From a bacterium (GTDB lineage: Bacteria > JAAXHH01), in NCBI GenBank assembly GCA_963693015.1, contig OY843748.1:3651059-3715058 (forward strand): a DNA stretch of 64,000 nucleotides. Direction: 5' to 3'. Below the pieces are notes generated by a model that was not told the DNA's origin, did no database searches, and was given only the letters and a program-made list of their open reading frames with translations. Positions 9,299 to 64,000 of the stretch are shown here, one piece after another; the first letter of the stretch is position 1, and each line of letters opens with the position of its first letter. A program made the translations under genes and the position numbers.

Positions 9299-9400
9299 GT
9301 GGCCGCCTGGTTCGCCTGGCCCGCCTGGTCCGCCCGGCCCGCGTGGCCGCCTGGTCCGCCTGGCCCGGCCGGGCGGTCAGGTCGGCGGTCAGGTCGGCGT
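9299..9400. repeat. GC-rich short tandem repeats (cgcctggyccgc x about 6; ggtcaggtcggc x2) in intergenic gap
   Basis: Seen directly between the SBP start (9250) and the ADH stop (9400). Confidence 0.6.
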
Positions 9401-33862: not shown

Positions 33863-34021
33863 TCGGGCTCCTGTCTGGTTTCGAATCGATCGCGGTTACG
33901 TTTCACTATACGCGGTTGCGATATCCTGCGCGGCTGCGATATCCTGCTCCCGTTGCGATACCCTGCGCGGTTGCGCGTCCGCGGCGACGAGCCCGCTGCT
34001 TCCGGCTTCCCGCGTCCCTGC

Positions 34022-42125: not shown

Positions 42126-42291
42126 TTGTAAGGGAAAGCAACCGAGAGACTTAGTTCGCTATAAATGATGAAATTGACTTCGAGAATACAATCTCCTCTT
42201 CGACTGAAGAACATAAGACAAAGAAGAAATGCTCCAGCGCAATCTCAGACTTTTTAAAGTACTATCGGGTCTAAAGTAAAGGGGCAGTCCG

Positions 42292-44435: not shown

Positions 44436-45716
44436 ATGATACGGCCGGGCGCTGAATCGTTGCGGAAGATCGCGGTCATCGGACAGGGAACCGCGGGCTC
44501 CCTGGCGGCCGCCAGTGTAACGCGTCTTCTCTCCGACGACGACCACGAACTGCATCACATCTACGACTCGCGCATTCCGGTCATCGGCGTGGGCGAAGGC
44601 AGTTGGCCGAGTCTGGTACAGGAACTGCACCAGCTGACGAATCTGCCCCACGCAACCGTCCAGCGGCGCTTGAACGGAACCCGCAAGTACGGCGTCGCAT
44701 TCGAGGGATGGGGGTGCCGCAGCCGGGATTTCACCCACTACTTCACGCCGCAACAGGTATCCTATGCCTACCATTTGTCCGCCGACGTGCTGGCGGAGCT
44801 GTTGCGCGAAAGCACGCGCGCGCGCCACGTCGACGCGAACGTGCGCGACATCAAAACCCTGGAGGACGGCGCGCAAGTCGAGTTCGACGGCCGGGCGCCG
44901 GAACGCTACGACCTGGTCTTCGATGCGCGCGGATTCCCGAAAGAACTCCATCCCGACCGGCACATCGACATTTCCTTCATTCCCACCAATACGGCCGTCA
45001 TCCGGCGCTGCCCGGCCGTCATCGCGGAAGAGCGGGACGGGCCGGTCGTGAAGCATACCTACACCCGTGCCGTTGCACGTCCCCACGGCTGGATATTCGT
45101 CATTCCGCTGACGGTGCACACCTCCTACGGGTACATCTTCAACCGCGATATATCCAGCCTCGAAGAAGTCGAATCGGACTTCGACGCCTTCCTTGAAGCC
45201 GATGGCGTGCCGGAATTCGAGCAGCGCGCCGTCATTCCGTTTCCCAACTTCATCCATCGCCGGATCTACGATGGCGCCGTGGCCCGCGTTGGCAACGCGG
45301 CGGCCTTCATGGAGCCCCTGGAGGCCACGGCGATCGTATCTGCCCAGCTGCAAATCGGGATGGTGTTGCAGACGCGTCTGAACCGGCCGGCAGAGCATCT
45401 CGCGCCCGACGCGCCGGTGGTCAACCGGTTTCTCGTCGACAACATGCTCTGCTACGGCCTGTTCGTCGGCTGGCACTATTGCCGTGGCTCCAGGTACGAC
45501 ACCACGTTCTGGCGTCACGCCCGAAACGACGTGTGGCCCCGTCACCGCGACGCGGCAGCGCCCGAGGCGGTGGATTGCGCCGCACTCGGCAAATTCGATG
45601 GGATGTTCGAGCTACTGAATCAACCGGTCATCGACAAATCGGATTGGGACCGGATGTGCGCGGTACCGCTTACCAGCTACGCCCAGGTGTCCCAGGGGCT
45701 GGGCTGCCAAAAGTGA
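44436..45716 (+). CDS. flavin-dependent halogenase (tryptophan-halogenase family, PF04820-like)
   Basis: N-terminal KIAVIGQGTAGSLAA (GxGxxG) and the GWIFVIPL motif (the WxWxIP signature of FADH2-dependent halogenases). Size is about 426 aa. Confidence 0.8.
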   Translation: MIRPGAESLRKIAVIGQGTAGSLAAASVTRLLSDDDHELHHIYDSRIPVIGVGEGSWPSLVQELHQLTNLPHATVQRRLNGTRKYGVAFEGWGCRSRDFTHYFTPQQVSYAYHLSADVLAELLRESTRARHVDANVRDIKTLEDGAQVEFDGRAPERYDLVFDARGFPKELHPDRHIDISFIPTNTAVIRRCPAVIAEERDGPVVKHTYTRAVARPHGWIFVIPLTVHTSYGYIFNRDISSLEEVESDFDAFLEADGVPEFEQRAVIPFPNFIHRRIYDGAVARVGNAAAFMEPLEATAIVSAQLQIGMVLQTRLNRPAEHLAPDAPVVNRFLVDNMLCYGLFVGWHYCRGSRYDTTFWRHARNDVWPRHRDAAAPEAVDCAALGKFDGMFELLNQPVIDKSDWDRMCAVPLTSYAQVSQGLGCQK

Positions 45717-45809
45717 CATTACTTGATTCGGGATGCGTATAACTTCATATTATATATCTAAATAAAGTAGTTTTGACTTGCTCGACAACCGGGAGGCATT
45801 GCTACAGTC

Positions 45810-46514: not shown

Positions 46515-46588
46515 GATGTCGAAGCGCATATCCACGGCCAGGCGTCGAAGCGCCAGGTCCTCCAGAACTCGAATGAGGCAACCATAGG

Positions 46589-48802: not shown

Positions 48803-48830
48803 CGCGGCAAACGGAGCCGGAATACAGACC

Positions 48831-51797
48831 ATGCCGGAATACACGTCCATAGCCGAACTCGCCGCCCGCTTCGGCGAGTCCGTGCCCTGCGCGGGCAACC
48901 TGCCGGTCGAACTCGTCGACCCGGAGAGCGTCTGGTTCATCGATCAGGGCGCCGTCAATCTGTTCCTGGTCGAATTCAGGGACGGGGTGGAACAGGCCGC
49001 GCCCCAGCATCTGCTGCGCCGGGAATCGGGCTGGTTGCTGCCGGGTGTCGCGCCGGACCGGGGGGACAGCGACGAAGACACCACGCTCAGCATCATCGCC
49101 AAGGGACTGCCGGGCACCCTGCTGAAACGTCTGCCGGCCGCCTTGCTGTCCCGGGTACGTCCGTCGGAACTGGCGGAACAGACCGATACCTGGCTGACCG
49201 CCATTACCGAGACGCTGGCGCGTTACGCGATTCCCCTTCCCCGGCCGGATGCGCTGGCCGAACCCGGCCTGACGCAGACCCTGGCCCCGTGTACGCTATC
49301 CGTACGGCGCGGCGTGGCATGGGTTACCGAACCGCCGTCCGGCGCAAGCCTGTACATGGGTATCGTAGACTACGCGGACAGTGCGGGAGCGAGCGGCCCC
49401 CATGGTCCGGGCGGTCCGCACGGCCCGCACGACGCGGTCGTTCCGCTGACGCGGACGAGCTGGCTCACCTTGACCGACGAGGCGACGCTGACAGGCCAAT
49501 CCACTGAAACGCTGGCGGAGCAAGGCGTGCTGCTGCCCGCCCTCGCCGCTTTTCACGCGGTTGCCTTCACCCTGGAACGCCTGAACCGCCGACTGGTCGT
49601 GGTCGACGCCGTCAATCTCGAACGCGCGCAGATCGCCAGCCGCCGCACGGCCGAGAAAACCGCCCGGCAGCGGCTCTACAATATCTATGACCGTCCGTCC
49701 GGCCGGGATGCCGGCATTGAGGACACGGCACTGACGGATGCCCTGAAGCTCGTCGGCCGCCATGAAGGCATCGATTTCAAGATTCCGGCGCCGTCGGGCC
49801 AGGCCGATGCTCGGGTCGGCCTCGTCGACGTTCTTGAAGCGTCGGGCGTGCGGGCCCGGCGCGTGCGATTCAAAGACGAGGGCAGCTGGTGGCGCGGCGA
49901 CAGCGGAGCGATGCTGGCGTTCCGCGCCGGGGACGGCCAGCCCGTGGCGCTGCTGCCGGGCATGTTCGGACGGTACCGGGAAGTCGACCCGGTCACCAAG
50001 CGGAGCGTCCGGGTTACGGCGGCCCGCCTGGACGGCGCGGGCAAACTGGCGGATGAAGCCTGGACGTTCTATCGGCCCTTGCCGCCGGGGGACGTGAAAC
50101 CGGCGGATCTGCTGAGAATCGCCCTGCACGGCGCGGCTCCGGATCACGTACGGCTGGTCATGGCCGGGCTTCCGGGCGGCCTGATCAAACTGCTGCCGGC
50201 GATCGCCCTCGGGTTCGTTGCCCATCAGGTATCGGCGGGCGGCAGCGCGGGAACGCTCTATGCCGTCGCCGTGGCGGTGGCGGCCTTCGGCCTGCTCGGC
50301 GCATTGCTGCACCTGCTTCAGAGCACGGCGATGATGCGGCTCGAAGGGCGCTCCGGCTCCCGGGTCGAAGCGGCCTTCTGGGACCGTCTCATGCGCCTTC
50401 CCTCAAGCACGCTGCACCGACATCCGGCCGGCGATCTGGCGATGACGGGCATGACGTTCCAGCATCTTCGCGACGGCCTGCAGGGCGTCGTCGCCAACGG
50501 CTTTCTGTCGATCATCTTCCTCCTTCCGGTTTTTGGCGTCATCTTCTTCTACGATGCCGCCCTCGGTGTCATCACCCTCGCCTTCAGCCTGGTTTCGCTG
50601 CTGGTCACCGTCGTACTGGGGTTGCGCCAGATTTCGCCTTACGGGTGGATGATTACCGCGTCGCGTCGCGTGGCCGGCCGGCTGTTCCAGATCGTGGGCG
50701 GCATCTCCAAGCTGCGCATGGATAACGCGGAAGGGTCGGCTTACGCCATCTGGGCGAAGCACTATCGCGAGCAGAAGCGCGCGGAGATCGAACTCGGGGC
50801 GCTGGAAGGCCATTCGCGGGCCCTTGGCGCCGCCCTTCCCTTTCTTGCCGGCGGGGTGCTGCTTTACGCGGTGGCATCGGGGGGAGACCGGAACGTTCCG
50901 GTCGGCGATTTTCTCGTCGTCTACATCGTCTTCATCGTCTTCCAGTCCGCCATCGCCCGGCTCGGCGAGTCCTTCGGCGCCATTGCCGCGATGCTGCCGT
51001 CCTTCCAACAGATGCGCCCGATGCTCTCGGCGGTTCCTGAAACCGGGACCGAGGGCGAGCCGGTCGAATATCTGGGCGGCGACATATTGTTCGACCGCGT
51101 TTCCTTCCGCTACGATCCCGATGGTCCGTTGATACTCGACGACGTCACAATTCGCGCCCATCCCGGCGAATTCGTCGCCATTGCCGGTGAATCCGGCGCC
51201 GGCAAGAGCACCCTGTTCCGGCTCGCCCTCGGTATCGACTGGCCGACCGCCGGCGCGGTGTATTACGACGGACGCGACCTGCGGCACCTGAATCTGAAGC
51301 AGGTGCGCCGCAAGATCGGCGCGGTGCCGCAATCCATCGGCCTTCATCCTCAGGATCTGTGGGACAATCTGGTCAGCCACCACGATGCCGTGACGACCGA
51401 GGAAGTCTGGGCGGCGGCCCGGACCGCCGAAGTCGAAGCCCAGATCAAGGACATGCCCATGGGCATGATGACCATGGTGGGCGCCAGCGGGTCCGTCCTG
51501 TCGGGCGGCGAGAGCCAGCGCATCGCAATCGCCCGCTCGGTGATCGGCAACCCGCGAATCATGCTGTTCGACGAGGCGACGAACTGGCTGGACAACGAAA
51601 ACCAGTCCAGGGTCATGGGGAACATCGCCGGCCTGACTTCCACCCGCCTCGTCATCGCCCACCGCCTGTCCACGCTGGAACAGGCCGACCGCATCTACGT
51701 GCTGCAGGCCGGGCGAGTCGTGCAAAGCGGTTCCTTTACGGAACTTATGGAGGCCGACGGGGTATTCAAAGAGCTGATCAGAAGGCAGATCGCCTGA
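48831..51797 (+). CDS. NHLM-type bacteriocin ABC exporter, ATP-binding/permease protein with long N-terminal domain
   Basis: About 480-aa N-terminal non-transporter region, then 6 TM, Walker A GESGAGKST and signature LSGGESQRIAIARS. Its pairing with a C39-ABC and an HlyD matches the TIGR03794/03796/03797 trio architecture. Confidence 0.7.
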   Translation: MPEYTSIAELAARFGESVPCAGNLPVELVDPESVWFIDQGAVNLFLVEFRDGVEQAAPQHLLRRESGWLLPGVAPDRGDSDEDTTLSIIAKGLPGTLLKRLPAALLSRVRPSELAEQTDTWLTAITETLARYAIPLPRPDALAEPGLTQTLAPCTLSVRRGVAWVTEPPSGASLYMGIVDYADSAGASGPHGPGGPHGPHDAVVPLTRTSWLTLTDEATLTGQSTETLAEQGVLLPALAAFHAVAFTLERLNRRLVVVDAVNLERAQIASRRTAEKTARQRLYNIYDRPSGRDAGIEDTALTDALKLVGRHEGIDFKIPAPSGQADARVGLVDVLEASGVRARRVRFKDEGSWWRGDSGAMLAFRAGDGQPVALLPGMFGRYREVDPVTKRSVRVTAARLDGAGKLADEAWTFYRPLPPGDVKPADLLRIALHGAAPDHVRLVMAGLPGGLIKLLPAIALGFVAHQVSAGGSAGTLYAVAVAVAAFGLLGALLHLLQSTAMMRLEGRSGSRVEAAFWDRLMRLPSSTLHRHPAGDLAMTGMTFQHLRDGLQGVVANGFLSIIFLLPVFGVIFFYDAALGVITLAFSLVSLLVTVVLGLRQISPYGWMITASRRVAGRLFQIVGGISKLRMDNAEGSAYAIWAKHYREQKRAEIELGALEGHSRALGAALPFLAGGVLLYAVASGGDRNVPVGDFLVVYIVFIVFQSAIARLGESFGAIAAMLPSFQQMRPMLSAVPETGTEGEPVEYLGGDILFDRVSFRYDPDGPLILDDVTIRAHPGEFVAIAGESGAGKSTLFRLALGIDWPTAGAVYYDGRDLRHLNLKQVRRKIGAVPQSIGLHPQDLWDNLVSHHDAVTTEEVWAAARTAEVEAQIKDMPMGMMTMVGASGSVLSGGESQRIAIARSVIGNPRIMLFDEATNWLDNENQSRVMGNIAGLTSTRLVIAHRLSTLEQADRIYVLQAGRVVQSGSFTELMEADGVFKELIRRQIA

Positions 51798-51851
51798 TCC
51801 GATTACGAGGATGACGGCCTGGCGGCAAACGCGCGCCTTCGGCCCGGACCC

Positions 51852-53168
51852 GTGAAAACGGAGTGGAAAACGATGAAGAAGCCCTTTGACGTGACGGGTT
51901 ACCTGCAGTCGCGTGCCGACGACGACCACGACTTCCGGGAACGTCTTCTCGCCAGGCCCAGGGAAACCATCGAAGAGGAATTCGGCGTGACGATGGCCAG
52001 AGACCATGAGATTCACGTCCACGAAGAATCCTATGCTTCGACGCACGTTGTCCTGCCGCCGCGTAGCAAATACACCAAGGCGGAACAGGAAGAAGCGAGA
52101 ACCGGCGCGGCCTCGCTCGAGTTCCTTCGCAAGACGATGTCCGATCCCGCGCCGCCCCTGCGTCCGCCCGCGGGTGAAGGGGAAAGCGTTTCCGGATTCT
52201 CCGGTACCCCCGAGGCGCTTGCAGACGCGGCCAGAGAGCGCATCCGCCGCGGCCTCGTCTTCCTGGAATCCGCCATAGACGAAAGGGGCGCCTGGCACTG
52301 TATCCGATTCAACGTGGGCGACCCGAATATCCCGCGGCATTTCGAAAGACCCGCCTTCATATCGGCTTACTGCGTCCTTGCCCTGGAGTATTGCCGGGAG
52401 GCGCGGGCCCGGTCCATCTGCGCCGCGGCCAGGGCGTATCTTGCCGACACCATCGAATACCCCGGATTCTGGCGCTATTACCGCCATCTGCCCCAGGATC
52501 TCGACAGCACCACGCTTTCTTCGCTTGTGATTGGAACGCACCCCTGGATCCTGCTGGAGCGAAACGTTCCGCGGATACTGGCGAATCGCGACGGGGAAGG
52601 CCGTTTCATGACCTGGGTGCTGACGGAAGACGAACCCGACGTCGTGTCGCGCTTTCGCATCGAAGCCGACCCCGTCGTCAATGCGAACGTCATCGCCTAT
52701 CTCGGCGACCGCCCGGAAACCAGGGAAGCGCAGCGATGGCTGGAAGCGCTGGTAGCCGAAGGCGATCTCGCGGGGTCGTCCAAATGGTATCCCGACGAGG
52801 TGGCCATCTACTATGCGATCGCCCGCGCCATGGGTCGCGCCGAGCCCGCGCTGAGTGGCCTGCGCCCGGTACTCGCGGACCGTGTCCTCGGCTTGCAGGA
52901 CGACAGTGGAGATTTCGGCAACGTCCTTCAGACCGCCCAGGCCGTGTCGGTGCTCCACGAAGTCGGACGCCTTGACCGCATCGACGCGAAACGCCAGGCG
53001 GAAAGACTCTTATGTTCCCAGCGCGAGGACGGCAGCTGGCCGGAACTCCTCGCCTTTGGAGACCAATCGTTGAAGTGGGGCGCAGTAGGACAGATCGGAC
53101 ACGGATCCGAAGCCGTGACCTCTGCGTTCTGTATCGAAGCGCTCGAGCGCCTCGTCACGTACCTGTGA
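51852..53168 (+). CDS. NHLP-type leader domain fused to prenyltransferase/terpene-cyclase-like alpha/alpha-toroid domain
   Basis: Residues 20-70 (DHDFRERLLARPRETIEEEFGVTMARDHEIHVHEESYASTHVVLPP) align position-by-position with the precursor at 59393-59644 and with the NHLP consensus. The C-terminal 350 aa carry QxxDGSW-like repeats (QREDGSWPE, LQDDSGDFGN, NRDGEGRF). Confidence 0.6.
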   Translation: MKTEWKTMKKPFDVTGYLQSRADDDHDFRERLLARPRETIEEEFGVTMARDHEIHVHEESYASTHVVLPPRSKYTKAEQEEARTGAASLEFLRKTMSDPAPPLRPPAGEGESVSGFSGTPEALADAARERIRRGLVFLESAIDERGAWHCIRFNVGDPNIPRHFERPAFISAYCVLALEYCREARARSICAAARAYLADTIEYPGFWRYYRHLPQDLDSTTLSSLVIGTHPWILLERNVPRILANRDGEGRFMTWVLTEDEPDVVSRFRIEADPVVNANVIAYLGDRPETREAQRWLEALVAEGDLAGSSKWYPDEVAIYYAIARAMGRAEPALSGLRPVLADRVLGLQDDSGDFGNVLQTAQAVSVLHEVGRLDRIDAKRQAERLLCSQREDGSWPELLAFGDQSLKWGAVGQIGHGSEAVTSAFCIEALERLVTYL

Positions 53169-53253
53169 ACGTGAATCCTGCCGGTCCGGGAATCCCGCGA
53201 CGAGATAACTTCCCGCGTAGGTGTTCGATTATGCTTACTAAGGAGGTGTTACC

Positions 53254-55653
53254 ATGTCACAGCACAGTTCTGCGGTAATCACCGGCGCCGATCCGGGCAA
53301 CGCCGACGCCACGCGGCAGATCGAACCGTCCATGCTGACGGCCCTCCCCCATTATCTGCCGCTCGGCGTCTTTCCCTTGATCATCCTCGCCGCGCTGAAT
53401 GGCGGCTGGTGGTTGCTGCCGCCCATCGTCTTCATGAGCCTTTCCTGGTCCTTCGACCGGGTATTCGGCCGCGACGGACGCAACATGGATCCGTGGAGCA
53501 CGCCGAAACACCGGCTGATCTGGCACAATCTCCCGGTCTGGACTTGGGCGTTCCTGTGGCCGCCGACGCTCATTTTCGGCGTCTGGCAGATCCTGGTGGC
53601 GGGTCAGTTCGCTCTGTGGGAAAATGCGCTGCTGGCGATCGTACTGACGATGGAAGCCCAGGCCGTATTCGTCGTCGGCCACGAACTGATCCACCGGCGC
53701 ACGTCCTGGGAACGCCGGATCGGCGAATTCCTGCTTTCCTCCTGTTCCTATCCGCAGTATGCCACGGAACACGTGTATATCCATCACGCGCTGGTCGGCA
53801 CGCCCCACGACGTGGGGTCCGCGCCAAAGGGCGAGAGTTTCTGGAAATACATGCCCAAGGAAATCATCAGCAACCTCGTCAATTCCTGGGAAGTCGCAAA
53901 AGATCGCCTTGGGCGCCGCCGCCTGACCATGTGGCATTACAGCAATCCCTTCTGGCGCTACGGCATCGGGGTCGCCTTCTGGTACGGTCTGGTTTTCTGG
54001 ATGGGCGGCATATGGGCCGTTCCGGTCTTTGCCTTCCTCGGCCTTTCCTGCGTCTTTTCCATGAAGATCAGCAATTACTTCCAGCACTACGGCCTGCGGC
54101 GGGTCCGCCTCGAAAACGGCCGCTGGGAGAAGATCATGCCACGGCATTCCTGGAGCGCGGACTGGAAGTTCAGCAACTGGATGCTGTTCAACGCCCAGCG
54201 CCACGCGGATCATCACGCCGTGGCGTCCCGCCAGTATCCCCTGCTCCAGGTCGGCAGCCACGACGAATCGCCGGAACTGCCGGGCACCTACGCCGATATG
54301 ATGAACATCGTCCTGCGGCCCAAATGCTGGTTCGAGAAGATGGACCCGCTGGTAGACCAGTGGCGGAAGCACTTCTACCCGGATATCGAGGACTGGAGTC
54401 CCTACGACAGCCCGCTTGCCGCCGCGCGGCCCGACGCCTTCGACGCGATCGTCGAGATCTTCGGCGCCGCCCCGCGGCTCGCGAAACGGATCGAGCAGAA
54501 CCCGGAACTGCTGGACAACCTGCAGGACCAGGAATTCCTCGATCTCGACCTGCCGAAGGGATTCGGGGAGGATGAAGAGTTCGAAGCGATCGCGCGGCGC
54601 GGACTTGCGAGAGTGTACTGGACGTACGAAATGGGCGTTCGGGAAATGAAGGACCTGATCGTCGAGCTGCCCGTGGTCGATGCCGGGGAAACCGCTGAGA
54701 TCGTGCGGAACTGGTCGAACGACAGGGCGTTCCAGATCGGCATGCACGTGGTGCGGGGCAACCTGTTGCCGGCGGAAGCGGGGACCGCGCTGTCGAATCT
54801 GGCCGAAGCGTCGATTTCGACCGTGCTTGCCTCCGTGGTTGCGGATTTTACCGAGCGGTACGGATCGCAGAGCGTGGGTGACGTCGCCGCGGTCTTCCTG
54901 GGCGACCTGGCCAGCCGCGAGGCATATCCCGGCATTGCGATGGATATGATGTTTGTCCATGACGGCCGGGAGTCCGGCGAGAACGAACGCATGTGCCGGA
55001 GTTTCCGAAAGGCCCTGGCCGACCTGGCGCAGGACAACCTGTTGTTCGCCCCGATCAGCCCCGATCCGGATTCCATTCCCTCGATGCAGCTTTCGGAACT
55101 GGCCGAGGGTGCTGGTGGTTCGACTTCCGGTGAAGTCCCCGTCCTCACCAGGGCGCGGTGCGTGTTCGAGCCTGACGGTTCCGACATGGGCGGCCGCTTC
55201 GACGAGGCGCGCCGTGAAATCCTGGCCGGGAGCGGCGCGAATGAGTCCCTTGTCGCCTGGTCGAGCGAGCAGCCGGAGGACCGCGCCGAGACGAGCGTGT
55301 CCACCTACGCCCGGGTGCGCGGCGGACTGGACGACGTGGAGCGGACCGCGCGATACCTTCAGCTGGTCCATGGCGGAACCCGCCTCGAAGAACCGGCGCC
55401 GACCGCCGCCGCGGTGTTCGAAGCCGCCGGCGACGAGCCGCTGGCGCAGGCGGCGAAACTGTGGCGGGACCTCCAGGGCGCCATGCGCCTGGTCGGCGAG
55501 GACGGATTTGAACTGGAGGAGGCGGGGCCGAAGGTCAGATCGCTTGTCGCGAAGGCCTGCGGGCAGGACGATTTCGATGGGTTGACGGCGGAGGTCGCCG
55601 AAACCGCGTCCCGCGCGGCCGCCCGGATCGAAGCCCTTGTTGCACGCCCATGA
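53254..55653 (+). CDS. AlkB-type integral-membrane di-iron hydroxylase fused to GlnE-like nucleotidyltransferase/helical domain
   Basis: N-terminal 400 aa: HELIHRR, EHVYIHHALVGTPHD, NYFQHYGL and NAQRHADHHAVASRQY, which match AlkB HELGHK / EHNRGHH / NYIEHYGL / LQRHSDHHA. C-terminal 400 aa: NPELLDNLQD ... VAAVFLGDLASREAYPGIAMDMMFVHDG resembles the GlnE adenylyltransferase core (GKLGGRELxxxSDLDLIF), with the second Asp replaced. RBS AAGGAGG upstream. Confidence 0.7.
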   Translation: MSQHSSAVITGADPGNADATRQIEPSMLTALPHYLPLGVFPLIILAALNGGWWLLPPIVFMSLSWSFDRVFGRDGRNMDPWSTPKHRLIWHNLPVWTWAFLWPPTLIFGVWQILVAGQFALWENALLAIVLTMEAQAVFVVGHELIHRRTSWERRIGEFLLSSCSYPQYATEHVYIHHALVGTPHDVGSAPKGESFWKYMPKEIISNLVNSWEVAKDRLGRRRLTMWHYSNPFWRYGIGVAFWYGLVFWMGGIWAVPVFAFLGLSCVFSMKISNYFQHYGLRRVRLENGRWEKIMPRHSWSADWKFSNWMLFNAQRHADHHAVASRQYPLLQVGSHDESPELPGTYADMMNIVLRPKCWFEKMDPLVDQWRKHFYPDIEDWSPYDSPLAAARPDAFDAIVEIFGAAPRLAKRIEQNPELLDNLQDQEFLDLDLPKGFGEDEEFEAIARRGLARVYWTYEMGVREMKDLIVELPVVDAGETAEIVRNWSNDRAFQIGMHVVRGNLLPAEAGTALSNLAEASISTVLASVVADFTERYGSQSVGDVAAVFLGDLASREAYPGIAMDMMFVHDGRESGENERMCRSFRKALADLAQDNLLFAPISPDPDSIPSMQLSELAEGAGGSTSGEVPVLTRARCVFEPDGSDMGGRFDEARREILAGSGANESLVAWSSEQPEDRAETSVSTYARVRGGLDDVERTARYLQLVHGGTRLEEPAPTAAAVFEAAGDEPLAQAAKLWRDLQGAMRLVGEDGFELEEAGPKVRSLVAKACGQDDFDGLTAEVAETASRAAARIEALVARP

Positions 55654-58139
55654 AGGTACCTGCCGGGCAGACGCCGAATCCCCGGATGCCGGGGCAGACG
55701 AAGACGGATTCTCCACGGGGGATATTAACTAGAACGACGCCTGCGGACCGCGGCAGCGTCGAGCTTCCCGCCCTCGCTCCGCACCTGGTCTGCCACGTCA
55801 TCGGCGAGCAGCAGACGCTCCTGGTTTCCGAGTCCTTCGATACGTTGCTGCACGGCGGCCTGTATTGCGACCTGCTTCCGCTTCTCGACGGCCGGCGTCC
55901 ACTGGCCGGGATCGTAGCCGGTCTGGAGGGCCGCCATACGGCCGCCCGTGTCGAAGCGGCCGTTGCTTCGCTCGCCGACAGGGGCTACGTCGTCTCCGCC
56001 GACTACGGCATGGACCGATCCCGGGCGGCCTACTGGTCGTCCCTCGGCGCGTCGCCCCGATGGGCCGAACAACGGCTGTCGGAATCGTCCGTCGCGGTCG
56101 AAGGCGACGACGGCCGGCTGGCATGTCACCTGGAAGCACGCGGCGCCGGTGTGGCGGCAGACGAGCCCGACTCGAGCGGCGCCGGTATGAAGGCAGACGA
56201 GCCCGACTCCAGCGGTGCGGGTGTGGCGGCAGACGAGCCCGACTCCAGCGGCACCGGTATGAAGGCAGATGAGCCCCGGCTCACGGTAATCGTCTGCGAC
56301 GATTATCTCGAACCACGATTCGCAGCGGTGAATCGGCGCCGTCTCGAGAAGAAAGCGCCGTGGACGCTGGTGCGGCCCCGCGGCATGGAGCCGCTGTTTG
56401 GCCCCGTCTTCCGCGCGGACGCAGACGGGCCCTGCTGGGACTGCCTGGCTACCCGGCTGCGCAGCCATAAGGAGGTGCACGATTTCCTGCGCCACGTTGC
56501 CGGCGAGGATGCCGCATTCAAGCCCTTCGCCGCCGAACCCGCGGTGCTGGAAGCGGTCTACGGCCTGATCGCGGCGGAGATCGTCAAATGGCTGGTGCTG
56601 GATGGGGCGGCCCCGATCCACGATCAGGCGATCTCGATGAATGTGGGCGAATTCGCCGTCTCGAAGCATCCGGTCATGCGCCGGCCGCAATGCCCGGCCT
56701 GCGGCGATGAAGCCTTGCATCGTCCGGATCGGCCGCCGGCGCCCCTGCGCCTGAATCCGAGTCCCAAGCCCCATCGCAACAGCGGCGGCGCGCGGGCCGT
56801 GGCGCCGGAAGCCACTCTGGCGAAATACCGCCACCTGGTGAGCCCGGTCAGCGGCGTCGTAACCTGGCTGAAGCGCACGACCAGTGAGCGCGACGCCTGG
56901 CTCCACGTCCACTGGGCCGGAAGCAATCCGGCCATGCGAAGCCGGAGCCTGAGTTCGCTCAGACGCAGCCTCCGCAGCAAGAGCGCCGGCAAGGGCAGCA
57001 CGGGGGAACAGTCCGAGGTCAGCGCCCTCTGCGAGGCGATCGAGCGTTATTCGGGCGCCCGTTGCGGAGACGAAATCCGCATCCGCCGGCGATTCGTCGA
57101 TTTCGCCGAAGAAGACGAGGCCATCCATCCCAACGACGTGCAGCTGTTCAGCGACCATCAGCTGGACAACGCGGAAAGCATCAACGCGGAAGGCCACCCC
57201 TACAACGTCGTCCCGCCGCGCCTCGATCCCGAAGCCGAGCTCGACTGGACCCCCGCGTGGTCGTTCACGCAGGGCCGGCACCGGTATCTGCCGACCTCGA
57301 TGCTCTACGGCACGTCGGCCGAACAGCGCGGAAGTACCGATCTGATCGCCGATTCCAACGGTTGCGCCGCGGGCAACACCCTGGAAGAGGCCATCCTGCA
57401 GGGGTTCTACGAACTGGTCGAGCGCGATGCCTTCGCCATCTGGTGGTACAACGGACTGCGCGTACCCGGAGTCGATCTTGCCAGCTTCGGCGACGAATTC
57501 CTGGCATCTGCCGAGGATTACTACGGCCGCCATGAGCGGGAAGTGTGGATGCTCGACGTGACTTCCGATCTGGGCATTCCGTCCTTCGTCGCCCTCTCGC
57601 GCAGGCCGGACGGGGATACCGAGGATATCATATACGGCGCCGGCGCCCACGCCGACCCGCGCCTGGCGGCCCTGCGCGCGGTCTGTGAGCTGAACCAGTG
57701 CCTTACCTGGTTGCCGCGTCCCGGGGGGAGCGACGGCCCGCCTGGCCGGCCTGACCGGTCTGGCCGACCCATGATCGACGATCCATTTGCCCTTCGCTGG
57801 TGGCAGACGGCTCGAATCGCCGACTGCTCCTGGCTGGTGCCGGAACCGGAGGCGCCGCTCAGGCAAGGCGCCCGGTATCCGGCGATCGAAACCGAGGACA
57901 CGCGCGACGACGTGGAACGATTCAGGGCACTGGTCGAGGCCCGGGGCATGGAGTTCCTGGTGCTGGACCAGACCCGGCCGGATATCGGCATGCCGGTCGT
58001 GCGGGTCATCGTGCCGGGCATGCGCCATTTCTGGGCGCGGTTCGCCCCCGGGCGCCTGTACGACGTGCCCGTCGCCATGGGGCGCCGCGATCGCCCGCTG
58101 GCCGAAGGCGATCTGAATCCCGCACCGGTAATCGCGTAA
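55650..58139 (+). CDS. fused RRE/E1-like docking domain + YcaO cyclodehydratase (thiazole/oxazole-forming, PatD/TruD/SagCD-type)
   Basis: E1-like PLFGPVFRADADGPCWDCLATRLRSH ... CPACG (tetrathiolate Zn site). YcaO: KYRHLVSPVSGVV ... SALCEAIERYSG ... SNGCAAGNTLEEAILQGFYELVERDA, with a Pro-rich C-terminus. The start overlaps the upstream stop (ATGA). Confidence 0.85.
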   Translation: MKVPAGQTPNPRMPGQTKTDSPRGILTRTTPADRGSVELPALAPHLVCHVIGEQQTLLVSESFDTLLHGGLYCDLLPLLDGRRPLAGIVAGLEGRHTAARVEAAVASLADRGYVVSADYGMDRSRAAYWSSLGASPRWAEQRLSESSVAVEGDDGRLACHLEARGAGVAADEPDSSGAGMKADEPDSSGAGVAADEPDSSGTGMKADEPRLTVIVCDDYLEPRFAAVNRRRLEKKAPWTLVRPRGMEPLFGPVFRADADGPCWDCLATRLRSHKEVHDFLRHVAGEDAAFKPFAAEPAVLEAVYGLIAAEIVKWLVLDGAAPIHDQAISMNVGEFAVSKHPVMRRPQCPACGDEALHRPDRPPAPLRLNPSPKPHRNSGGARAVAPEATLAKYRHLVSPVSGVVTWLKRTTSERDAWLHVHWAGSNPAMRSRSLSSLRRSLRSKSAGKGSTGEQSEVSALCEAIERYSGARCGDEIRIRRRFVDFAEEDEAIHPNDVQLFSDHQLDNAESINAEGHPYNVVPPRLDPEAELDWTPAWSFTQGRHRYLPTSMLYGTSAEQRGSTDLIADSNGCAAGNTLEEAILQGFYELVERDAFAIWWYNGLRVPGVDLASFGDEFLASAEDYYGRHEREVWMLDVTSDLGIPSFVALSRRPDGDTEDIIYGAGAHADPRLAALRAVCELNQCLTWLPRPGGSDGPPGRPDRSGRPMIDDPFALRWWQTARIADCSWLVPEPEAPLRQGARYPAIETEDTRDDVERFRALVEARGMEFLVLDQTRPDIGMPVVRVIVPGMRHFWARFAPGRLYDVPVAMGRRDRPLAEGDLNPAPVIA
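56142..56276. repeat. 36-bp tandem repeat x3.75 encoding acidic GAG(V/M)(A/K)ADEPDSS linker between RRE and E1-like domains
   Basis: Seen directly, alternating VAA/MKA variants. Confidence 0.85.
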
Positions 58140-58148
58140 GGAGGCGGA

Positions 58149-59267
58149 ATGAATATCGACGAAGCCGTTCTGCTTACCCAGGATCGTCTCGCCGAAGAGG
58201 GCGGCACGCTGGCGGAATTGCTCGGGCGCTTCAGGAGCCGGGTTTCACCGAGCCTTATCGGGGAGCGGGAATGGACGCTCATACTGGAACGCGCAAAGCA
58301 ACTCCCCATCTCCATGGGCGCCCAGCCCTTCGGCTTTGAATTGCCGCTCCATGACAGCCGGCCCGTGGCGGATTTCGGCGTCTCGCTGGCGAGCGGGAAC
58401 CGGTCAGGCAATTTCTATGAAGCGCGGGCGCGAACGGACGAGACGGACGAGACCGCAAGTGCGGTCGGTCGGCTGTTCGCGGAAATGGAAGCCCGGGACT
58501 CGCCGCTGCGGGAGATCGTGGGACGCAAGCTGATGCTGGAGTATGACATCGGCTCGGCGCACGGGAACAAGGCGTCGCTGCCTGGGTTGTTCCTGCGGCC
58601 CAACGAACGCACCTTGTCCGGTGGCGGAGGCCTTGCGCGTGACGTCGGGATCGTGGTTGACGCCCTGGTTTCCAGCGTCGGCTGGGAAAGGATCGACGCC
58701 GAACGGAAAAACGTCGAGCGGGTCTACCTGGCGCAGCCCGACGACACGCGCATGGATTCCTTCGGCGTATTCCCGTCCCGGGAACGAACGATCCGCCTGG
58801 CGGTCATGGGCTTCAACGGACAGGAGGCCCTCTGTTCTTATCTGGAAGCCACCGACTGGCCGGGGCGTATTTCGGCTGTCGAGTCCGTGATTTCACGCTT
58901 GAAGGAACGGGCGGATATCGTGAGTACGGGTGTGAATATCGACGTGCGGGCAGACGGACTGGGGCCGACGCTCGGCCTTACGCCCATCGTCAAGCAGAGA
59001 TATACGAATGACAGCCGCTACTGGATCGACGGCCAGACCGATTGGGAGCCTATCCTCGAAGCCCTGAGGTATGAGGACTGCGTCGTACCGGAGAAGCTTG
59101 CGGCGCTCGGCGACTGGGCGTCGAAACCGACCACGCTGTTTGGCCGTACCGGCCCCTTCGTCATGTTACGCGGCATACATCACGTAAAGCTGGTCATATC
59201 CGGAAACAGACTGGAGAAGGTCAAGGCCTATCTCTACATGGTGCTTTCCGGAGCGCTCTCGATTTAA
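58149..59267 (+). CDS. hypothetical protein (372 aa), last gene of the RiPP-like operon
   Basis: Protein-like composition, 10-bp gap to the YcaO gene. No motif recognised by eye. Confidence 0.5.
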   Translation: MNIDEAVLLTQDRLAEEGGTLAELLGRFRSRVSPSLIGEREWTLILERAKQLPISMGAQPFGFELPLHDSRPVADFGVSLASGNRSGNFYEARARTDETDETASAVGRLFAEMEARDSPLREIVGRKLMLEYDIGSAHGNKASLPGLFLRPNERTLSGGGGLARDVGIVVDALVSSVGWERIDAERKNVERVYLAQPDDTRMDSFGVFPSRERTIRLAVMGFNGQEALCSYLEATDWPGRISAVESVISRLKERADIVSTGVNIDVRADGLGPTLGLTPIVKQRYTNDSRYWIDGQTDWEPILEALRYEDCVVPEKLAALGDWASKPTTLFGRTGPFVMLRGIHHVKLVISGNRLEKVKAYLYMVLSGALSI

Positions 59268-59298
59268 GCGCTTCAAGCGCAACTTCGGGAACCCGACG

Positions 59299-59337
59299 CA
59301 AAAATCCCCCCGACCAGGTTGATCGGAGGGATTTTTT
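59299..59337. terminator. bidirectional Rho-independent terminator (GC stem flanked by A-tract and T-tract)
   Basis: gcaaaaatcccccc-gaccaggttgatc-ggagggatttttt. It lies between the convergent genes ending at 59267 (+) and 59393 (-). Confidence 0.6.
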
Positions 59338-59392
59338 GACCTGCTCAATCATGCGAACGCCGGGCGTCCGCATGCGAACCGGTGTCTCTGGC

Positions 59393-59644
59393 CTACCAGC
59401 AGCAGCAAAGGCCGGCAGAAACGGCTTCGAGTTGCTCCTCGGTGATATTCGGATCCGGGGGCAACGCGATGTGCACCGTCTGCATATCGCTTTCGTGGAC
59501 CTGGATCGTCATCGATTCAGGCATCGTAATGTCCAACTCCTCGCAAATGACCGACTTCGGATCTGCGATCAATTTCTGCCTGAAATCTGCGTCCAGGGCG
59601 GACTTGTCCACAATCTGCTTCAGCATTTCGTCGCCACTTCTCAT
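59393..59644 (-). CDS. NHLP (nitrile-hydratase leader peptide) family RiPP precursor; predicted core LCCCW
   Basis: MRSGDEMLKQIVDKSALDADFRQKLIADPKSVICEELDITMPESMTIQVHESDMQTVHIALPPDPNITEEQLEAVSAG-LCCCW. The leader matches the NHLP consensus (DxxFRxxLxxDPxxxxxEELxxxxPExxxIxVHExxxxxxHIxLPP ... LExVxAG). Strong RBS AGGGAGG 6 nt upstream, and ATG start. Confidence 0.8.
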   Translation of the reverse strand: MRSGDEMLKQIVDKSALDADFRQKLIADPKSVICEELDITMPESMTIQVHESDMQTVHIALPPDPNITEEQLEAVSAGLCCCW

Positions 59645-59690: not shown

Positions 59691-59743
59691 AACAATGACA
59701 AAATAGTACTTAATCAATATATGTCATTTTCGCCGAAAAGTCA

Positions 59744-60400
59744 AGGGATTTAGAGTGATATGCGTATCACGGCCGGTCCTGTTGTCGACGTGGCGCGGCT
59801 TCGACAGTCGTCCCATTCACCCTGTTGAAGGGCGTTCCCGGTTCTTCTTCTTCCTCGACGCGTGGATGACCGAGGCATCCACTACCCTGCCTTTGCGCAC
59901 CGCCAGCCCCGCCTCGGACAGATAGCGCTTCGTCTGCCGGGACAACGCCTGGGCCAGCCCGTGCGCTTCCAGTAAATGGCGGAACTTGCAGATCGTCGTC
60001 TCATCGGGAACGCCGTCTACGTCCACGCCCGCGAAGCGGCGCATCAATTCCACGTCGTAGAGATTGTCCTCCATGGTCGGGTCGCTCAGGCCGTACCATT
60101 GCTGCATGAAGTAGATACGGAGCATCACCTCGGCGCCAATGGGACGCCTGCCGTTGCCGGGCTTCGGATAGTGCTCCAGGATGGGGGCAAGCAGCAGATC
60201 CCAGGGCAATACCGCGTTCATTTCTCCCAGAAAGAGTTCCTTGCGCGTTTTCTTCCCGCGTATGCTCTTCTGATCGGAGGCTATACCGAAAAACTCGTTG
60301 GGTTTCATGACTGAATACGTGACTCAGGATGGTCCGTCGCTCGGGTTGCGTTTACGTCTGCGTTTGTATCGTACGTAAATATAAAGGATTTAGTGTGATC
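59744..60400. mobile_element. IS5-family insertion-sequence remnant flanked by 17-bp imperfect direct repeats
   Basis: agggatttagagtgata (59744-59760) and aaggatttagtgtgatc (60384-60400) bracket a truncated IS5 transposase ORF. Confidence 0.5.
59817..60308 (-). pseudogene. IS5-family transposase, N-terminal 163-aa fragment (DDE domain missing)
   Basis: LPWDLLLAPILEHYPKPGNGRRPIGAEVMLRIYFMQQWYGLSDPTMEDNLYD...TTICKFRHLLEAHGLAQAL closely parallels the IS5 Tnp N-terminus. The ORF stops where the catalytic domain should begin. Confidence 0.7.
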
Positions 60401-60569
60401 AATGTGTGAATAATACGGCTTTTAAGAAGAATATTTCGTGAATTTCTGAGGATCAGGCGCGGACTATGTCCCGGAGCGCCGACAGCAGGCACGTAATCCT
60501 GATCGATCTTCCGCCCGCCCTGCCCGGGTCATGTGGCCGATATTGGAAGGGCGATCTTCGAGAAAGGTC

Positions 60570-62021
60570 TTAGCCAGGGGAGCGCCTCCCCGCCCGACTC
60601 GCCACCGCCCCCACGATCACGTTGAGCGCCAGGCCCAGCACGCCGGCGTGCCAGCCCCAGACCTTGCCCATGCCCGCGAGGGTCAGCCCGGCCGCGAGCA
60701 ACGTGCCCGCGGCCATCCCCGCGGCCGCGCCGGTCGCGTCATAGCGTTTCCACAACACGCCGAGGACGAACAGCGGCGCGGTCTGGATCAGCACCTCCAT
60801 CTTGAGCTCTATGAGTCCCCACAGGGTGAGGTCGGGCGTCAACGCAATGGCGACCAGAATGGCCATGATGGCCCAGGACAGGCGCTTCCCCCACGCGGTG
60901 AGCCGCTCTTCCGGGAGCGATCCCATTCGAAATCGGCCCAGAACGTCCTTGACGAGCAGGGAGGAGAGGCTGAGCAGGACGGAATCGGCCGTCGACATGA
61001 TGGCCGCGACGATGCCGGTGAGGACGAGCACGGTCATGACGTACAGCCAGAGGGATTCCGCCGCCCACACCCTAAGCAGGCGGGGCATGACCTGGTCGGT
61101 GTCGACACCCTCGAGGCCCGATAGCTGGGGGATGGCGAGGATCCCGACCAGGACGACCGCCGATATGGTTACGAGGGGCATGAAGGCCATGAAGGTGAAG
61201 GAACGTTTCAGGCTGCGGGCGCTCCGGGCGGCGAATATGCGTTGGATGGCCTGGGGATAGACGGCGGCGGCAAATCCCACGAGCAGGATCGTGCTGATCC
61301 AGGTTCGGATCGTATCGCCTTGCGGGAGCGCGGCTTTCGCGGGCTGATTGACGATGATCCAGGCCGTTGCTTCGCCGAGGCGGTCGCTGCCCGGCACCAC
61401 GGCGGCCAGCATGCCGAGCAGGCCCACGAAAAGCAGCAGGCCCTGGATGCAGTCGGTCCAGGCCACGGCCTGCATGCCGCCGAGGGTCTCGTAGAACAGG
61501 ATGATGACGGCCAGGACCACCACGCCGGCCCAGAAGGGAATGGCCCCGCCGGACAGGCCGGAGACGATATGGCCCACGGCGAGGAGCTGGGCGAGCAGGT
61601 AGTTGGCAATGGCGACCACGAACAGCACGCCGGCGAAGAAGGTCAGCCCCTTCGATCCGAAACGGTGGGTGATCCAGTCGCCGGGCGTCACGAAGCGCCA
61701 TTGGCGGGACAGGCGATACAGCGCCGGCGCGAAGAGAAGGTAAGCCACCACGATGGCCATCATGAAACCGATGCTCATGATCCAGGCGTAGCCCAGCCGG
61801 TAGGCCTCGCCGGGATAGCCGACGAGCGTGTTGCCGCTGTACTGCGTGGCATAGAGGGTGAAGAAGAGGACCGGCGCGCCCAGGTTCTTGCCCGCCAGGT
61901 AGAAGGAGGACATCGAATTGTCCCGCCGGCGGGCGCGGGCCACGTATCCGAGGACGATCATGAAGACGAGGTACGCGGCCAGGAACAGGAGCGCGCCTGG
62001 GCCGTAGGGCTGTTCCGCCAT
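60570..62021 (-). CDS. sodium:solute symporter (SSS) family transporter
   Basis: 13 TM-like segments, with an N-terminal FYLAGKNLG motif (the SSS 'GR/K' region). Confidence 0.85.
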   Translation of the reverse strand: MAEQPYGPGALLFLAAYLVFMIVLGYVARARRRDNSMSSFYLAGKNLGAPVLFFTLYATQYSGNTLVGYPGEAYRLGYAWIMSIGFMMAIVVAYLLFAPALYRLSRQWRFVTPGDWITHRFGSKGLTFFAGVLFVVAIANYLLAQLLAVGHIVSGLSGGAIPFWAGVVVLAVIILFYETLGGMQAVAWTDCIQGLLLFVGLLGMLAAVVPGSDRLGEATAWIIVNQPAKAALPQGDTIRTWISTILLVGFAAAVYPQAIQRIFAARSARSLKRSFTFMAFMPLVTISAVVLVGILAIPQLSGLEGVDTDQVMPRLLRVWAAESLWLYVMTVLVLTGIVAAIMSTADSVLLSLSSLLVKDVLGRFRMGSLPEERLTAWGKRLSWAIMAILVAIALTPDLTLWGLIELKMEVLIQTAPLFVLGVLWKRYDATGAAAGMAAGTLLAAGLTLAGMGKVWGWHAGVLGLALNVIVGAVASRAGRRSPG

Positions 62022-62132
62022 GATATCCTAACCTCCGGGGCCGCGGGTGCTTGTTTCACCTGCGCGGCCTGAGGCGCACGGGGCGGACGCACGAAGGAAG
62101 GCGTCTGGATCGTGACGCAGGGCGCTCATGGG

Positions 62133-62369
62133 CTAATCGTCCTCCCGCCAGAACCTGTGGATTGCGAAGGCGGTGAAGCACGCGATGGCCAGGCAGACGC
62201 CCAGGCAGATCACGACCCAGTAGGGCACGCCGAACCATATGGGGACCGGTTCGATTTCAGGAAGGTACCAGGGAATCGACAGGGCGAACAGGCCCGTGTA
62301 CACGGCCCATATCCACAGGGGGAATCGGCGACCGGAGATTGGAGGGTTCATGAAGGACCCGTTGTTCAT
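62133..62369 (-). CDS. DUF3311-like small membrane protein (accessory subunit commonly preceding SSS transporters)
   Basis: 78 aa, two TM (WIWAVYTGLFALSIPWY ... VVICLGVCLAIACFTAFAI), immediately upstream of the SSS gene. An alternative start is at 62351. Confidence 0.55.
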   Translation of the reverse strand: MNNGSFMNPPISGRRFPLWIWAVYTGLFALSIPWYLPEIEPVPIWFGVPYWVVICLGVCLAIACFTAFAIHRFWREDD

Positions 62370-63214
62370 ACGCGGACGTATTTGTGCACGAGGTTCTCCA
62401 CGCCTACTTCGCCCACGTAGATATCGCCGTGGCGGTCGACCCAGACGCTGTGGGCGCCGTGGGCCTGATCGACCGGCCCGCCCCTGACGACCCACTGGGC
62501 GATGAGTCTTCCGTCCATGTTCATGATGGTGACCCCGCCGCCCTCGCCCAGGAAGACCGTATCCTCGTCGTCTACGAACAGGCCGCAGGGCGCGGGACGG
62601 CCGGGCCATTCCGCGAGGAAGCTGCCCTCCGAATCGAAGACCTGTATCCGGTTGTTGGTCTCCCGGTCCGCCACCAGCAGCCGTCCGTCGGACGTGGAGA
62701 ATATGTTGTGGGGGAGCGTGAACTTCCCGGGCGCGTCGCCCCGGCCGCCCCAGGTATCGACCAGGTCGCCCGAAGGCGTCATCCGGTGCACGTAACACTG
62801 TCCATAACCGTCGGCGACGTACAGATCGCCGGAAGGCCCTTTGACCGCGCGCGTCGGCATGTTGAAGGGTTTGCCCGGCGCTCCGGTCCGGCCAGGCTCA
62901 CCCAGCGTCTGCAGGAGCGCGCCGTTGGTCGAAAACACCCGGACGGTGTGGTCTCTGCAGTCCGGAATGAAGATCCTGTCCTCGCCGTCGATCCATATCT
63001 CGTGGGGCAGGGCCAGTATGTCGTGACCCCATTCGTTCAACAGGTGGCCGTCCCGGTCGTAGACCACCACGGCGGGATTCGGCTCCCGGTCGACGACGTA
63101 CACGCGGTCCTCCGAATCCACGGCCACGGCCGTGGCGATGCCCAGAGTCCGCTCGGAACCCCATCCGAGCACCTTCTCGTAACAGTAGTCTCCTGATCCC
63201 CAGATCATTTGCAC
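62366..63214 (-). CDS. NHL-repeat six-bladed beta-propeller protein (peptidyl-alpha-hydroxyglycine alpha-amidating lyase-like)
   Basis: Repeated ...G.G.G.F..P.G.A.D.DG.lYVAD..N.RiQvF units in 282 aa. Confidence 0.65.
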   Translation of the reverse strand: MQMIWGSGDYCYEKVLGWGSERTLGIATAVAVDSEDRVYVVDREPNPAVVVYDRDGHLLNEWGHDILALPHEIWIDGEDRIFIPDCRDHTVRVFSTNGALLQTLGEPGRTGAPGKPFNMPTRAVKGPSGDLYVADGYGQCYVHRMTPSGDLVDTWGGRGDAPGKFTLPHNIFSTSDGRLLVADRETNNRIQVFDSEGSFLAEWPGRPAPCGLFVDDEDTVFLGEGGGVTIMNMDGRLIAQWVVRGGPVDQAHGAHSVWVDRHGDIYVGEVGVENLVHKYVRV

Positions 63215-63459
63215 GTCCTCTCAGGAAATGAATGCGGGATTATGCGCTGAGTGCCGGCCCCGACCGGCGAATCCCCGGATGGAACCGATAGGTACAAAGG
63301 TTTTGTCGTGTTCATACCCGAAGTATATACTAAATCCGATCCCGCAACACCGGATATTCGCCGTATCATGAACCGGGTTGCCGGTACGGTCCGGCTTCGG
63401 TATCCCTCACGTCAGCATCATTTGTCCGGTTTCAACTTACAGATGACAGGAGCCATCTC

Positions 63460-64000
63460 ATGGGCGTACTCGACAGTTTTTCCCTACAAGGCCGTATCGC
63501 CGTGGTCACGGGCGGCGCGGGTCCGCAGTTCGGCAGCAGCATCTCCGAAGCCCTGGCCGAAGCGGGGGCGACCGTGGTCGTCGCTTCGAGGGACCTCGAC
63601 AACAACCGGCGGTTCGTCGCCGGACTGAACGAACAGGGTCTCGATGCCCACCCCGAAGCACTCGACATCACGGACACCGACTCGATCAATAGCCTGAAAC
63701 GACGCGTCATGGACCGATTCGGCCGCGCGGACGTCCTGGTCAACAGCGCGGTGGTCGGCCGGGGCGGCGGTTTCGACGAGCAGACCCCCGACTACTGGGC
63801 CGCCAGCGCCCAGGGGAACATGGTGGGTCTCTTCGCCCTGTGCAAGGCCTTCGTGCCGGTCATGGCCGGCCAGGGCGGCGGCAGCGTCATCAACATATCC
63901 AGTATCTACGGCGTCGTGGCCAACGACCCGGGCCTGTACGAGGAGACCGGGATGAAGCAGCCCCCGGACTACACTTTCGTCAAGGGCGGCATGATCAATT
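63460..64000 (+). CDS. short-chain dehydrogenase/reductase (SDR), 3' partial
   Basis: TGGAGPQFGSSISEALAEAGATVVVASR (TGxxxGxG Rossmann motif) and NSAVVG. RBS GACAGGAG upstream. Runs off the window end. Confidence 0.8.
   Translation, partial: MGVLDSFSLQGRIAVVTGGAGPQFGSSISEALAEAGATVVVASRDLDNNRRFVAGLNEQGLDAHPEALDITDTDSINSLKRRVMDRFGRADVLVNSAVVGRGGGFDEQTPDYWAASAQGNMVGLFALCKAFVPVMAGQGGGSVINISSIYGVVANDPGLYEETGMKQPPDYTFVKGGMIN

Follow-up and report, generated by a model that had tools for sequence, protein, structure and literature searches.

A polymorphic in-frame tandem repeat in the SrpC-type cyclodehydratase of an srp proteusin gene cluster

Within a 64,000-nt stretch of bacterial DNA (contig OY843748.1 of assembly GCA_963693015.1, positions 3,651,059 to 3,715,058; hereafter the window, to whose own numbering all positions refer), a long open reading frame (ORF) encodes a YcaO-type cyclodehydratase interrupted by a short array of 12-residue repeats, and it is this gene and its repeat that are considered here (Table 1). 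The gene is part of a cluster spanning positions 44436-59644 that has the make-up of an srp (sponge-derived RiPP proteusin) cluster, RiPPs being peptides made by the ribosome and modified after translation; such clusters were reportedly first described by Nguyen et al. in 2021 (JACS, doi 10.1021/jacs.1c03474). Because the locus holds a complete srp cluster, with SrpE, SrpI and an exporter, the gene appears to be an orthologue of srpC, an assignment that rests on the cluster content and on the features of SrpE and SrpI. The system, SrpC of the srp clusters, was therefore one already known, which had been overlooked in a preliminary description of the stretch made from its letters alone. What, then, is the repeat, and does it matter to the enzyme?

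Table 1. The cyclodehydratase gene, its variable segments and the surrounding srp genes, in window coordinates
Feature	Positions	Strand	Evidence
srpC orthologue, fused RRE/E1-like/YcaO azoline-forming cyclodehydratase, 829 aa (amino acids)	55650..58139	+	ORF, Pfam, NCBIfam, sequence and fold matches
Winged-helix RRE (aa 43-114), leader-binding domain	55776..55991	+	PF21084 (E 4.5e-9), LynD alignment, AlphaFold2
E1-like domain (MccB/ThiF-like, non-catalytic), aa ~147-404	56088..56861	+	TIGR03882, Zn-site Cys, Foldseek MccB, AlphaFold2 secondary structure
In-frame 36-bp x3.8 tandem repeat, units A-B-A-B', aa 165-209	56140..56276	+	Tandem Repeats Finder
YcaO domain, aa 446-829, ATP/Mg motifs, C-terminal NPAPVIA tail	56985..58136	+	PF02624, TIGR03604, LynD alignment
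Second hypervariable loop, aa ~690-707, Gly/Pro-rich, collagen-like (PGGSDGPPGRPDRSGRP), in YcaO domain	57717..57770	+	Tandem Repeats Finder, alignment
ATGA start/stop overlap with upstream FA_desaturase-GlnE-like gene	55650..55653	+	ORF coordinates
srpE precursor of 83 aa with an NHLP leader (ITEEQL motif), SAG as cleavage site and LCCCW as core	59393..59644	-	TIGR03793, leader identity
srpI-like flavin-dependent Trp halogenase (predicted brominase)	44436..45716	+	PF04820 (4.8e-46)
Export gene: short HlyD-like protein	45810-46514	+	TIGR03794, partial match
Export gene: NHLM-type C39-peptidase ABC exporter	46589-48802	+	TIGR03796, 857 bits
Export gene: second ABC subunit	48831-51797	+	TIGR03797, 651 bits
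NHLP-like/alpha-toroid-like fusion, conserved srp gene	51852-53168	+	Pfam/NCBIfam; 77/81 related loci
FA_desaturase-GlnE-like fusion, conserved srp gene	53254-55653	+	Pfam; 69/81 related loci
372-aa conserved srp protein matching no family	58149..59267	+	75/81 related loci

The presence of RRE-like, E1-like and YcaO domains on one polypeptide of the PatD/TruD/LynD type, as proposed in the preliminary description, is borne out by matches in Pfam, NCBIfam and the PDB and by Foldseek. The winged helix-turn-helix family PF21084 scores 36.9 bits (cutoff 24.1) over residues 43-114, this region aligns with LynD residues 6-113, and the predicted local distance difference test score (pLDDT) of the winged helix in an AlphaFold2 model is 83-93. 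Further along, TIGR03882 (E1-like/docking, 'TOMM precursor leader peptide-binding') is matched over residues 236-404 with 141 bits (cutoff 36.9), PF02624 (YcaO) over residues 446-792 with 310 bits and all of its model positions (1-325 of 325) covered, and TIGR03604 over residues 447-826 with 280.8 bits (cutoff 219.25). The closest solved relatives by sequence are LynD (1.8e-160) and TruD (7.9e-155), followed by MusD; a Foldseek search with the AlphaFold2 model likewise gave LynD, TruD and MusD at the top, and then stand-alone YcaOs, McbD and MccB.

The functional motifs are all in place. The Zn-site cysteines C262, C265, C348 and C351 are invariant in 118 orthologues and align with CWDC and CPTC of LynD, and the residues S458xxxE462xxE465R466 and E580/Q584/E588/E591/R592 are the same as in LynD and invariant, or nearly so, in the same 118 sequences. 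These helices, SxxxExxER and ExxxQxxxExxER, we take to be those that carry the YcaO ATP-binding residues of Dunbar et al. (2014); loss of such residues, which the preliminary description had singled out as the thing to look for on alignment, was not seen, both YcaO helices being as in LynD. At the C-terminus, ...DLNPAPVIA aligns with ...MNPTPM of LynD and TruD, N823 being invariant and P824 and P826 at least 90% conserved among the 118; a role for the proline-rich tail in the active site, and its importance for catalysis, have been described (PMC6395948).

SrpC thus shares with LynD, TruD and PatD (PDB 4V1T, 4BS9) a single chain of three domains, the CxxC...CxxC Zn site, the ATP/Mg helices (LCEAxERYSG and NTLEEAILQGFxELVERD) and the NPxP tail, at a Foldseek identity of about 35%. 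It differs from the cyanobactin heterocyclases in that the leader of its substrate is a long structured NHLP where theirs is short, and the srp cluster lacks the proteases and the macrocyclase of cyanobactin clusters. SrpC orthologues share, moreover, about 38 residues at the N-terminus (residues 1-38, at 55650-55765, with the motif …GILTRTTPADRGxVxLP…) that are conserved among them and absent from LynD and TruD. In some SrpC lineages this extension, too, contains short duplications (ARQGK); it may be a feature specific to the way in which the NHLP leader is recognized.

The assignment to srp is carried by the rest of the cluster. It is known of these systems that the core of SrpE is LCCCW, that the YcaO protein SrpC turns its three cysteines into thiazolines and that SrpI, acting after SrpC, brominates the C-terminal tryptophan (PMC10858898, PMC10286304). 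In the window, a six-frame search for Cys-rich peptides revealed a precursor (MRSGDEML...ITEEQLEAVSAG-LCCCW) that scores 63.7 against the NHLP leader model TIGR03793 (cutoff 50.9), and whose leader is 77% identical to the published leader of S. aurea SrpE; an LCCCW substrate, as foreseen in the preliminary description, is therefore indeed encoded here, at the end of this 83-residue peptide. The leader has ITEEQL in place of the LTEEQL of the published SrpE, and a 252-bp srpE gene with the ITEEQL variant, as here, matches reports from sponge metatranscriptomes. In the halogenase, K84 and P105-Q106-Q107-V108-S109 are exactly the residues named for the published SrpI. An SrpE core of LCCCW, the brominase residues of SrpI, exporters of the NHLM type, a fused YcaO protein and a gene order shared with 80 loci are all as in srp clusters; what sets the window allele apart from the published system is its four 12-residue units and a slightly expanded Gly/Pro loop.

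We turn now to the repeat itself, which Tandem Repeats Finder detects at period 36 (x3.8, 84% matches, score 197) and, better, at period 72 (x1.9, 92%, score 239); the array is far beyond what chance would give. Read in frame from 56142, its units are GAGVAADEPDSS (u1), GAGMKADEPDSS (u2), GAGVAADEPDSS again (u3) and GTGMKADEP followed by RLT (u4). There are 3 nt differences between u1 and u3, all three of them synonymous, and 2 differences between u2 and u4 in their first 27 nt. Because the members of each pair are so nearly alike, the array is best read, from its sequence, as a duplicated A-B dimer of 72 bp. The repeat segment of 45 residues has 11 acidic and 2 basic residues, a net charge of about -9.

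Where in the protein does this segment lie? An AlphaFold2 model built from a multiple sequence alignment had a mean pLDDT of 54.6 overall, with residues 30-170 good (60-93); its quality is moderate because the usable homologues are all at least 72% identical, and a model from the single sequence (pLDDT 35) was unusable. In the alignment-based model the winged helix occupies residues 40-116 and is followed by two helices within residues 123-145, a strand at 147-151, a helix at 156-163 and a short strand at 167-169; residues 172-206 are disordered (pLDDT about 33), after which come a strand at 211-215 (TVIVC), a helix at 222-233 and a strand at 238-241. The repeat lies about 50 residues beyond the winged helix, where the E1-like domain has completed its first beta-alpha unit. 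Because of this secondary structure and of the alignment with TruD, the repeat is placed, as modelled, in an expanded alpha1-beta2 loop inside the Rossmann-like E1-like domain. The variable loop differs from its equivalent in LynD and TruD in both length and sequence, that of TruD being longish and of low complexity. Thus, the 36-bp repeat reported in the preliminary description exists, but its supposed position between the RRE and the E1-like domain does not hold, and an interdomain linker was rejected, since the secondary structure puts the repeat inside the second domain.

The history of the array was followed in an alignment of 121 proteins at 72-100% identity. Of these, 97 keep the one native unit, with no more than a single residue added (…SGAGVGTGDPRLTV…), in a loop of about eight residues, and in the remaining 24 there are expansions of 4 to 36 residues, with units such as GAGVAADEPDSS, GAGAGDPGSWDT, GAGLASGGPDSS and GAGVTSGAAGSS, or GVVA with a period of four residues. 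The units of other lineages are neutral or have fewer acidic residues (e.g. GAGVTSGAAGSS, GVVAGVVA); acidity, to judge from these sequences, is not a conserved property of the expansions. In a neighbour-joining tree the expansions are confined to one clade, but within it they are recurrent, and sister sequences differ in copy number. The expanding lineage carries from one to four units, so that the comparison with related genomes for which the preliminary description had called reveals a polymorphism of copy number.

This variation extends to very close relatives. At a syntenic metagenomic locus (L001), 96% identical to the window at the nucleotide level over the gene, the array differs by one clean 36-bp unit; alleles in the cluster at 90% identity have the unit orders ABA, AAA, BBA and ABA (three units), as against ABAB (four) in the window, and a neighbouring cluster has two or three units. 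Such differences in number, and the shuffling of units among alleles at least 90% identical, uphold the origin by slippage that had been suggested from the repeat itself. A protein in a public collection (P0125) that is encoded on a contig of 3.94 Mb is identical to the window SrpC, and is probably from the same genome.

Nor is this the only variable segment in the protein. The Gly/Pro-rich loop of the YcaO domain contains a 9-bp x3.6 repeat at 57735-57766 (Tandem Repeats Finder), is 10 residues long in most orthologues and reaches 67 residues in the repeat-expanding clade, and its length is also polymorphic among alleles at least 90% identical; pLDDT is below 50 at residues 691-715. Insertions are limited to these two loops, and the protein is 70-95% identical to orthologues from other phyla. 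Beyond srpC, other arrays, with periods divisible by 3, lie in frame inside long ORFs of the window (9292-9367, 12215-12329, 18665-18787, 27417-27456 and 33911-33975), examples being PGPPGQ x2.2, an 18-residue unit x2.1 and an (E/G)-rich run, and they suggest a genome-wide leaning towards coding minisatellites. Loci of the host lineage hold 1.21 such arrays per 10 kb, about four-fold the 0.31 of other srp loci (Mann-Whitney p = 2e-4).

In a scan of relatives that took one genome per species, relatives at 69% identity or more occurred in 569 species genomes, and 80 loci (69-82% amino acid identity) were kept. They come from metagenome-assembled genomes labelled as Latescibacterota, Nitrospinota, Alpha- and Gammaproteobacteria, Gemmatimonadota, Acidobacteriota, Binatia and Nitrospirota, and sponges or corals are the source of many; this wide spread over phyla matches the published picture of srp as 'highly distributed'. 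SrpC was kept together with SrpE in all 81 of 81 related loci, and the gene order is conserved across many phyla. The flank downstream of the biosynthetic genes (window 59700-64000, with an SSF symporter and an NHL-repeat protein), which does not belong to the cluster, is 83-97% identical at the nucleotide level in nine loci (L001-L003, L007, L008, L011, L014, L021 and L031), three of which are labelled Candidatus Latescibacterota; a comparison of the downstream flank with eight loci, three of them with this label, gave 83-88%. Because this flank is conserved in the nine loci, the srp cluster, though common to many phyla, occupies one fixed place on the chromosome within this lineage; and from the same synteny it seems that the lineage with expanded repeats is probably Latescibacterota.

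From all this, we consider it highly likely that the gene is the SrpC orthologue of an srp cluster, and that its repeat is a tolerated, slippage-derived expansion of a loop that lies outside the mechanism of the enzyme; the repeat itself is probably neutral. By analogy with its relatives in the literature, from which its quaternary structure, binding mode and chemistry are taken, the window SrpC would be a head-to-tail homodimer (by homology with LynD/TruD and MprC), whose winged-helix RRE would bind the ITEEQL strand (of the L(X)4L type) of the NHLP leader of SrpE, while the five-residue core LCCCW would be handed to a YcaO active site. Each cysteine would there attack the preceding amide carbonyl to give a hemiorthoamide, ATP/Mg2+ would serve to phosphorylate this intermediate, and elimination of phosphate would leave three contiguous thiazolines. 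Since no azoline dehydrogenase is encoded in the srp cluster, the rings would be expected to remain thiazolines; SrpI would next brominate the C-terminal tryptophan, and the C39-peptidase ABC exporter would cut after SAG and export the product. The native 'GAGVxxxDP' loop would have grown from one to four units through duplication of the 72-bp A-B dimer, by slippage or by unequal exchange; being disordered and tolerant, it would let the number and order of its units drift among close alleles.

A fused RRE-YcaO enzyme acting on NHLP precursors is also known in MprC, a proteusin cyclodehydratase (PMC12455567), for which it has been proposed that an L(X)4L strand and helix alpha1 of the NHLP bind to the RRE and that the core reaches the other protomer. 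MprC is, however, substrate-promiscuous, and acts with a dehydrogenase, MprD, to give thiazoles, unlike the dehydrogenase-free srp system; moreover, the SrpE leader does not support MprC activity (PMC12455567).

Some points weigh against the repeat as a tolerated expansion of this kind. The loop assignment comes from a moderate AlphaFold2 model, and rests on the well-predicted N-terminal 170 residues and on the TruD alignment; the arrays of srpC itself were counted in the enrichment test; and the four-unit state is found in one assembly only, P0125 being in all probability the same genome. The differences between u1 and u3 are all synonymous (3/3), a hint, on a very small count, that the peptide might be under purifying selection. 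Lastly, the srp literature describes SrpC as poorly active and as an enzyme that could not be purified, so the length of the loop may bear on how soluble or active the window allele is.

These last two points would also suit a reading in which the acidic repeat is a functional, flexible element that tunes the capture of the precursor (e.g. by electrostatic steering of the NHLP leader), contacts a partner (candidates being the FA_desaturase-GlnE-like membrane protein and the NHLP-like fusion) or aids solubility. That reading, the tuning part of which goes back to the preliminary description, gains some appeal from the strongly acidic nature of the segment, from the E1-like domain of LynD and McbB, which is half of a 'peptide clamp' completed by the RRE of the other protomer, from the repeated origin of expansions at the same site and from the length of the equivalent loop in TruD. 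We nevertheless think it unlikely: the loop of about eight residues that prevails among the close orthologues (97 of 121) is found also in lineages with a highly transcribed srp precursor, the expanded units of other lineages are not acidic, unit order and copy number vary among alleles at least 90% identical, and in the same lineage expansion has also reached many other genes and, within the YcaO domain, a loop unrelated to this one. On the comparative evidence, then, a role in tuning would seem to find no support. A more far-reaching version, to which we would give slightly less credence still, makes both loops fast-evolving, length-tunable modulators, copy number being an evolutionary 'dial' on the output of a peptide highly expressed in sponges; they might conceivably set the reach or the electrostatics of the clamp for a bulky NHLP leader, or tether SrpC to a membrane-bound SrpB-like protein.

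It could also be asked whether the copy number, or the whole repeat, is an artefact of assembly, as assemblers can collapse or expand tandem repeats and as the four-unit form is confined to the window sequence and its identical database twin. This is very improbable. At period 36 the units are only 84% identical, and typical reads are longer than the array's 137 bp; the contig of 3.94 Mb that encodes the identical protein points to an assembly of chromosome scale from long reads; the array, with three units, recurs in close alleles that were assembled independently, and more distant relatives have two or three units of their own sequence; and neither the reading frame nor any downstream domain is disrupted. 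Least probable of all is that the gene is a decaying or inactive copy, its low-complexity insertions being a sign that constraint has relaxed on the enzyme as a whole, for although one protein has two such expansions and the neighbouring HlyD-like gene is short (234 residues against a model of 421 positions), the ORF is full-length with all its Zn, ATP/Mg and C-terminal motifs invariant, the identity to orthologues from other phyla is 70-95% with insertions in two loops only, and the cluster, which has its precursor, its halogenase and its exporter, is complete.

The practical gain is one of annotation, in that the window holds a complete srp cluster, and the cyclodehydration experiment that might have been asked for has essentially been done already with SrpC. 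The one thing that is new is the tolerance of SrpC for in-frame repeat expansions, which occur at two defined loops and are polymorphic at the population level; the understanding of YcaO chemistry is unchanged. The loops are natural indel-tolerant sites, which could help in the engineering or purification of SrpC (orthologues with one unit may express better), and the repeats point to a host lineage in which coding minisatellites are unusually numerous.

Some further features of the locus deserve mention. The ATG of srpC at 55650 overlaps the TGA of the ORF at 53254..55653, so that the ATGA overlap with the upstream AlkB::GlnE gene given in the preliminary description is confirmed by the coordinates. 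At 32 of 72 related loci there is likewise a 4-base overlap, in most cases ATGA or GTGA, with an upstream ORF that is long (over 300 codons, and about 800 in most); this is compatible with translational coupling. The upstream ORF joins a membrane FA_desaturase/AlkB-like domain to a GlnE-like (nucleotidyltransferase-associated) region.

Immediately before it lies the 438-residue fusion protein, probably SrpA from the gene order, which has an NHLP/nitrile-hydratase-alpha-like N-terminus (residues 18-82, under the family cutoff) and a remaining domain of about 350 residues with weak squalene-hopene-cyclase-like repeats; a sequence search of the PDB with it gave nothing informative. Between srpC and srpE is the gene for the 372-residue protein, which has no match in Pfam, NCBIfam or the PDB.

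The low-GC island at 37836-44105 (50-56%, as against about 63%), directly upstream of the srp halogenase gene, is absent from related loci, within the flanks available for them. It encodes an Avs2-type STAND NTPase of 1429 residues (PADLOC, 1133 bits) and a candidate defence pair, HEC-01A/HEC-01B (AAA_21 and DUF4276).

Finally, we note two more repeats. The HlyD-like protein, which matches only the first 58 or so of the 421 positions of the NHLM_micro_HlyD model and has similarly short counterparts in 63 of the 81 loci, contains an in-frame 42-bp x3.6 repeat at 46039-46188 (VQVEAPAGQGEKST); and at 2743-2843 there is a direct repeat of 25 bp x4.0 (CGCCGTCAGACCAGGTGGCACGCCG), which is perfect and whose period is not divisible by three.

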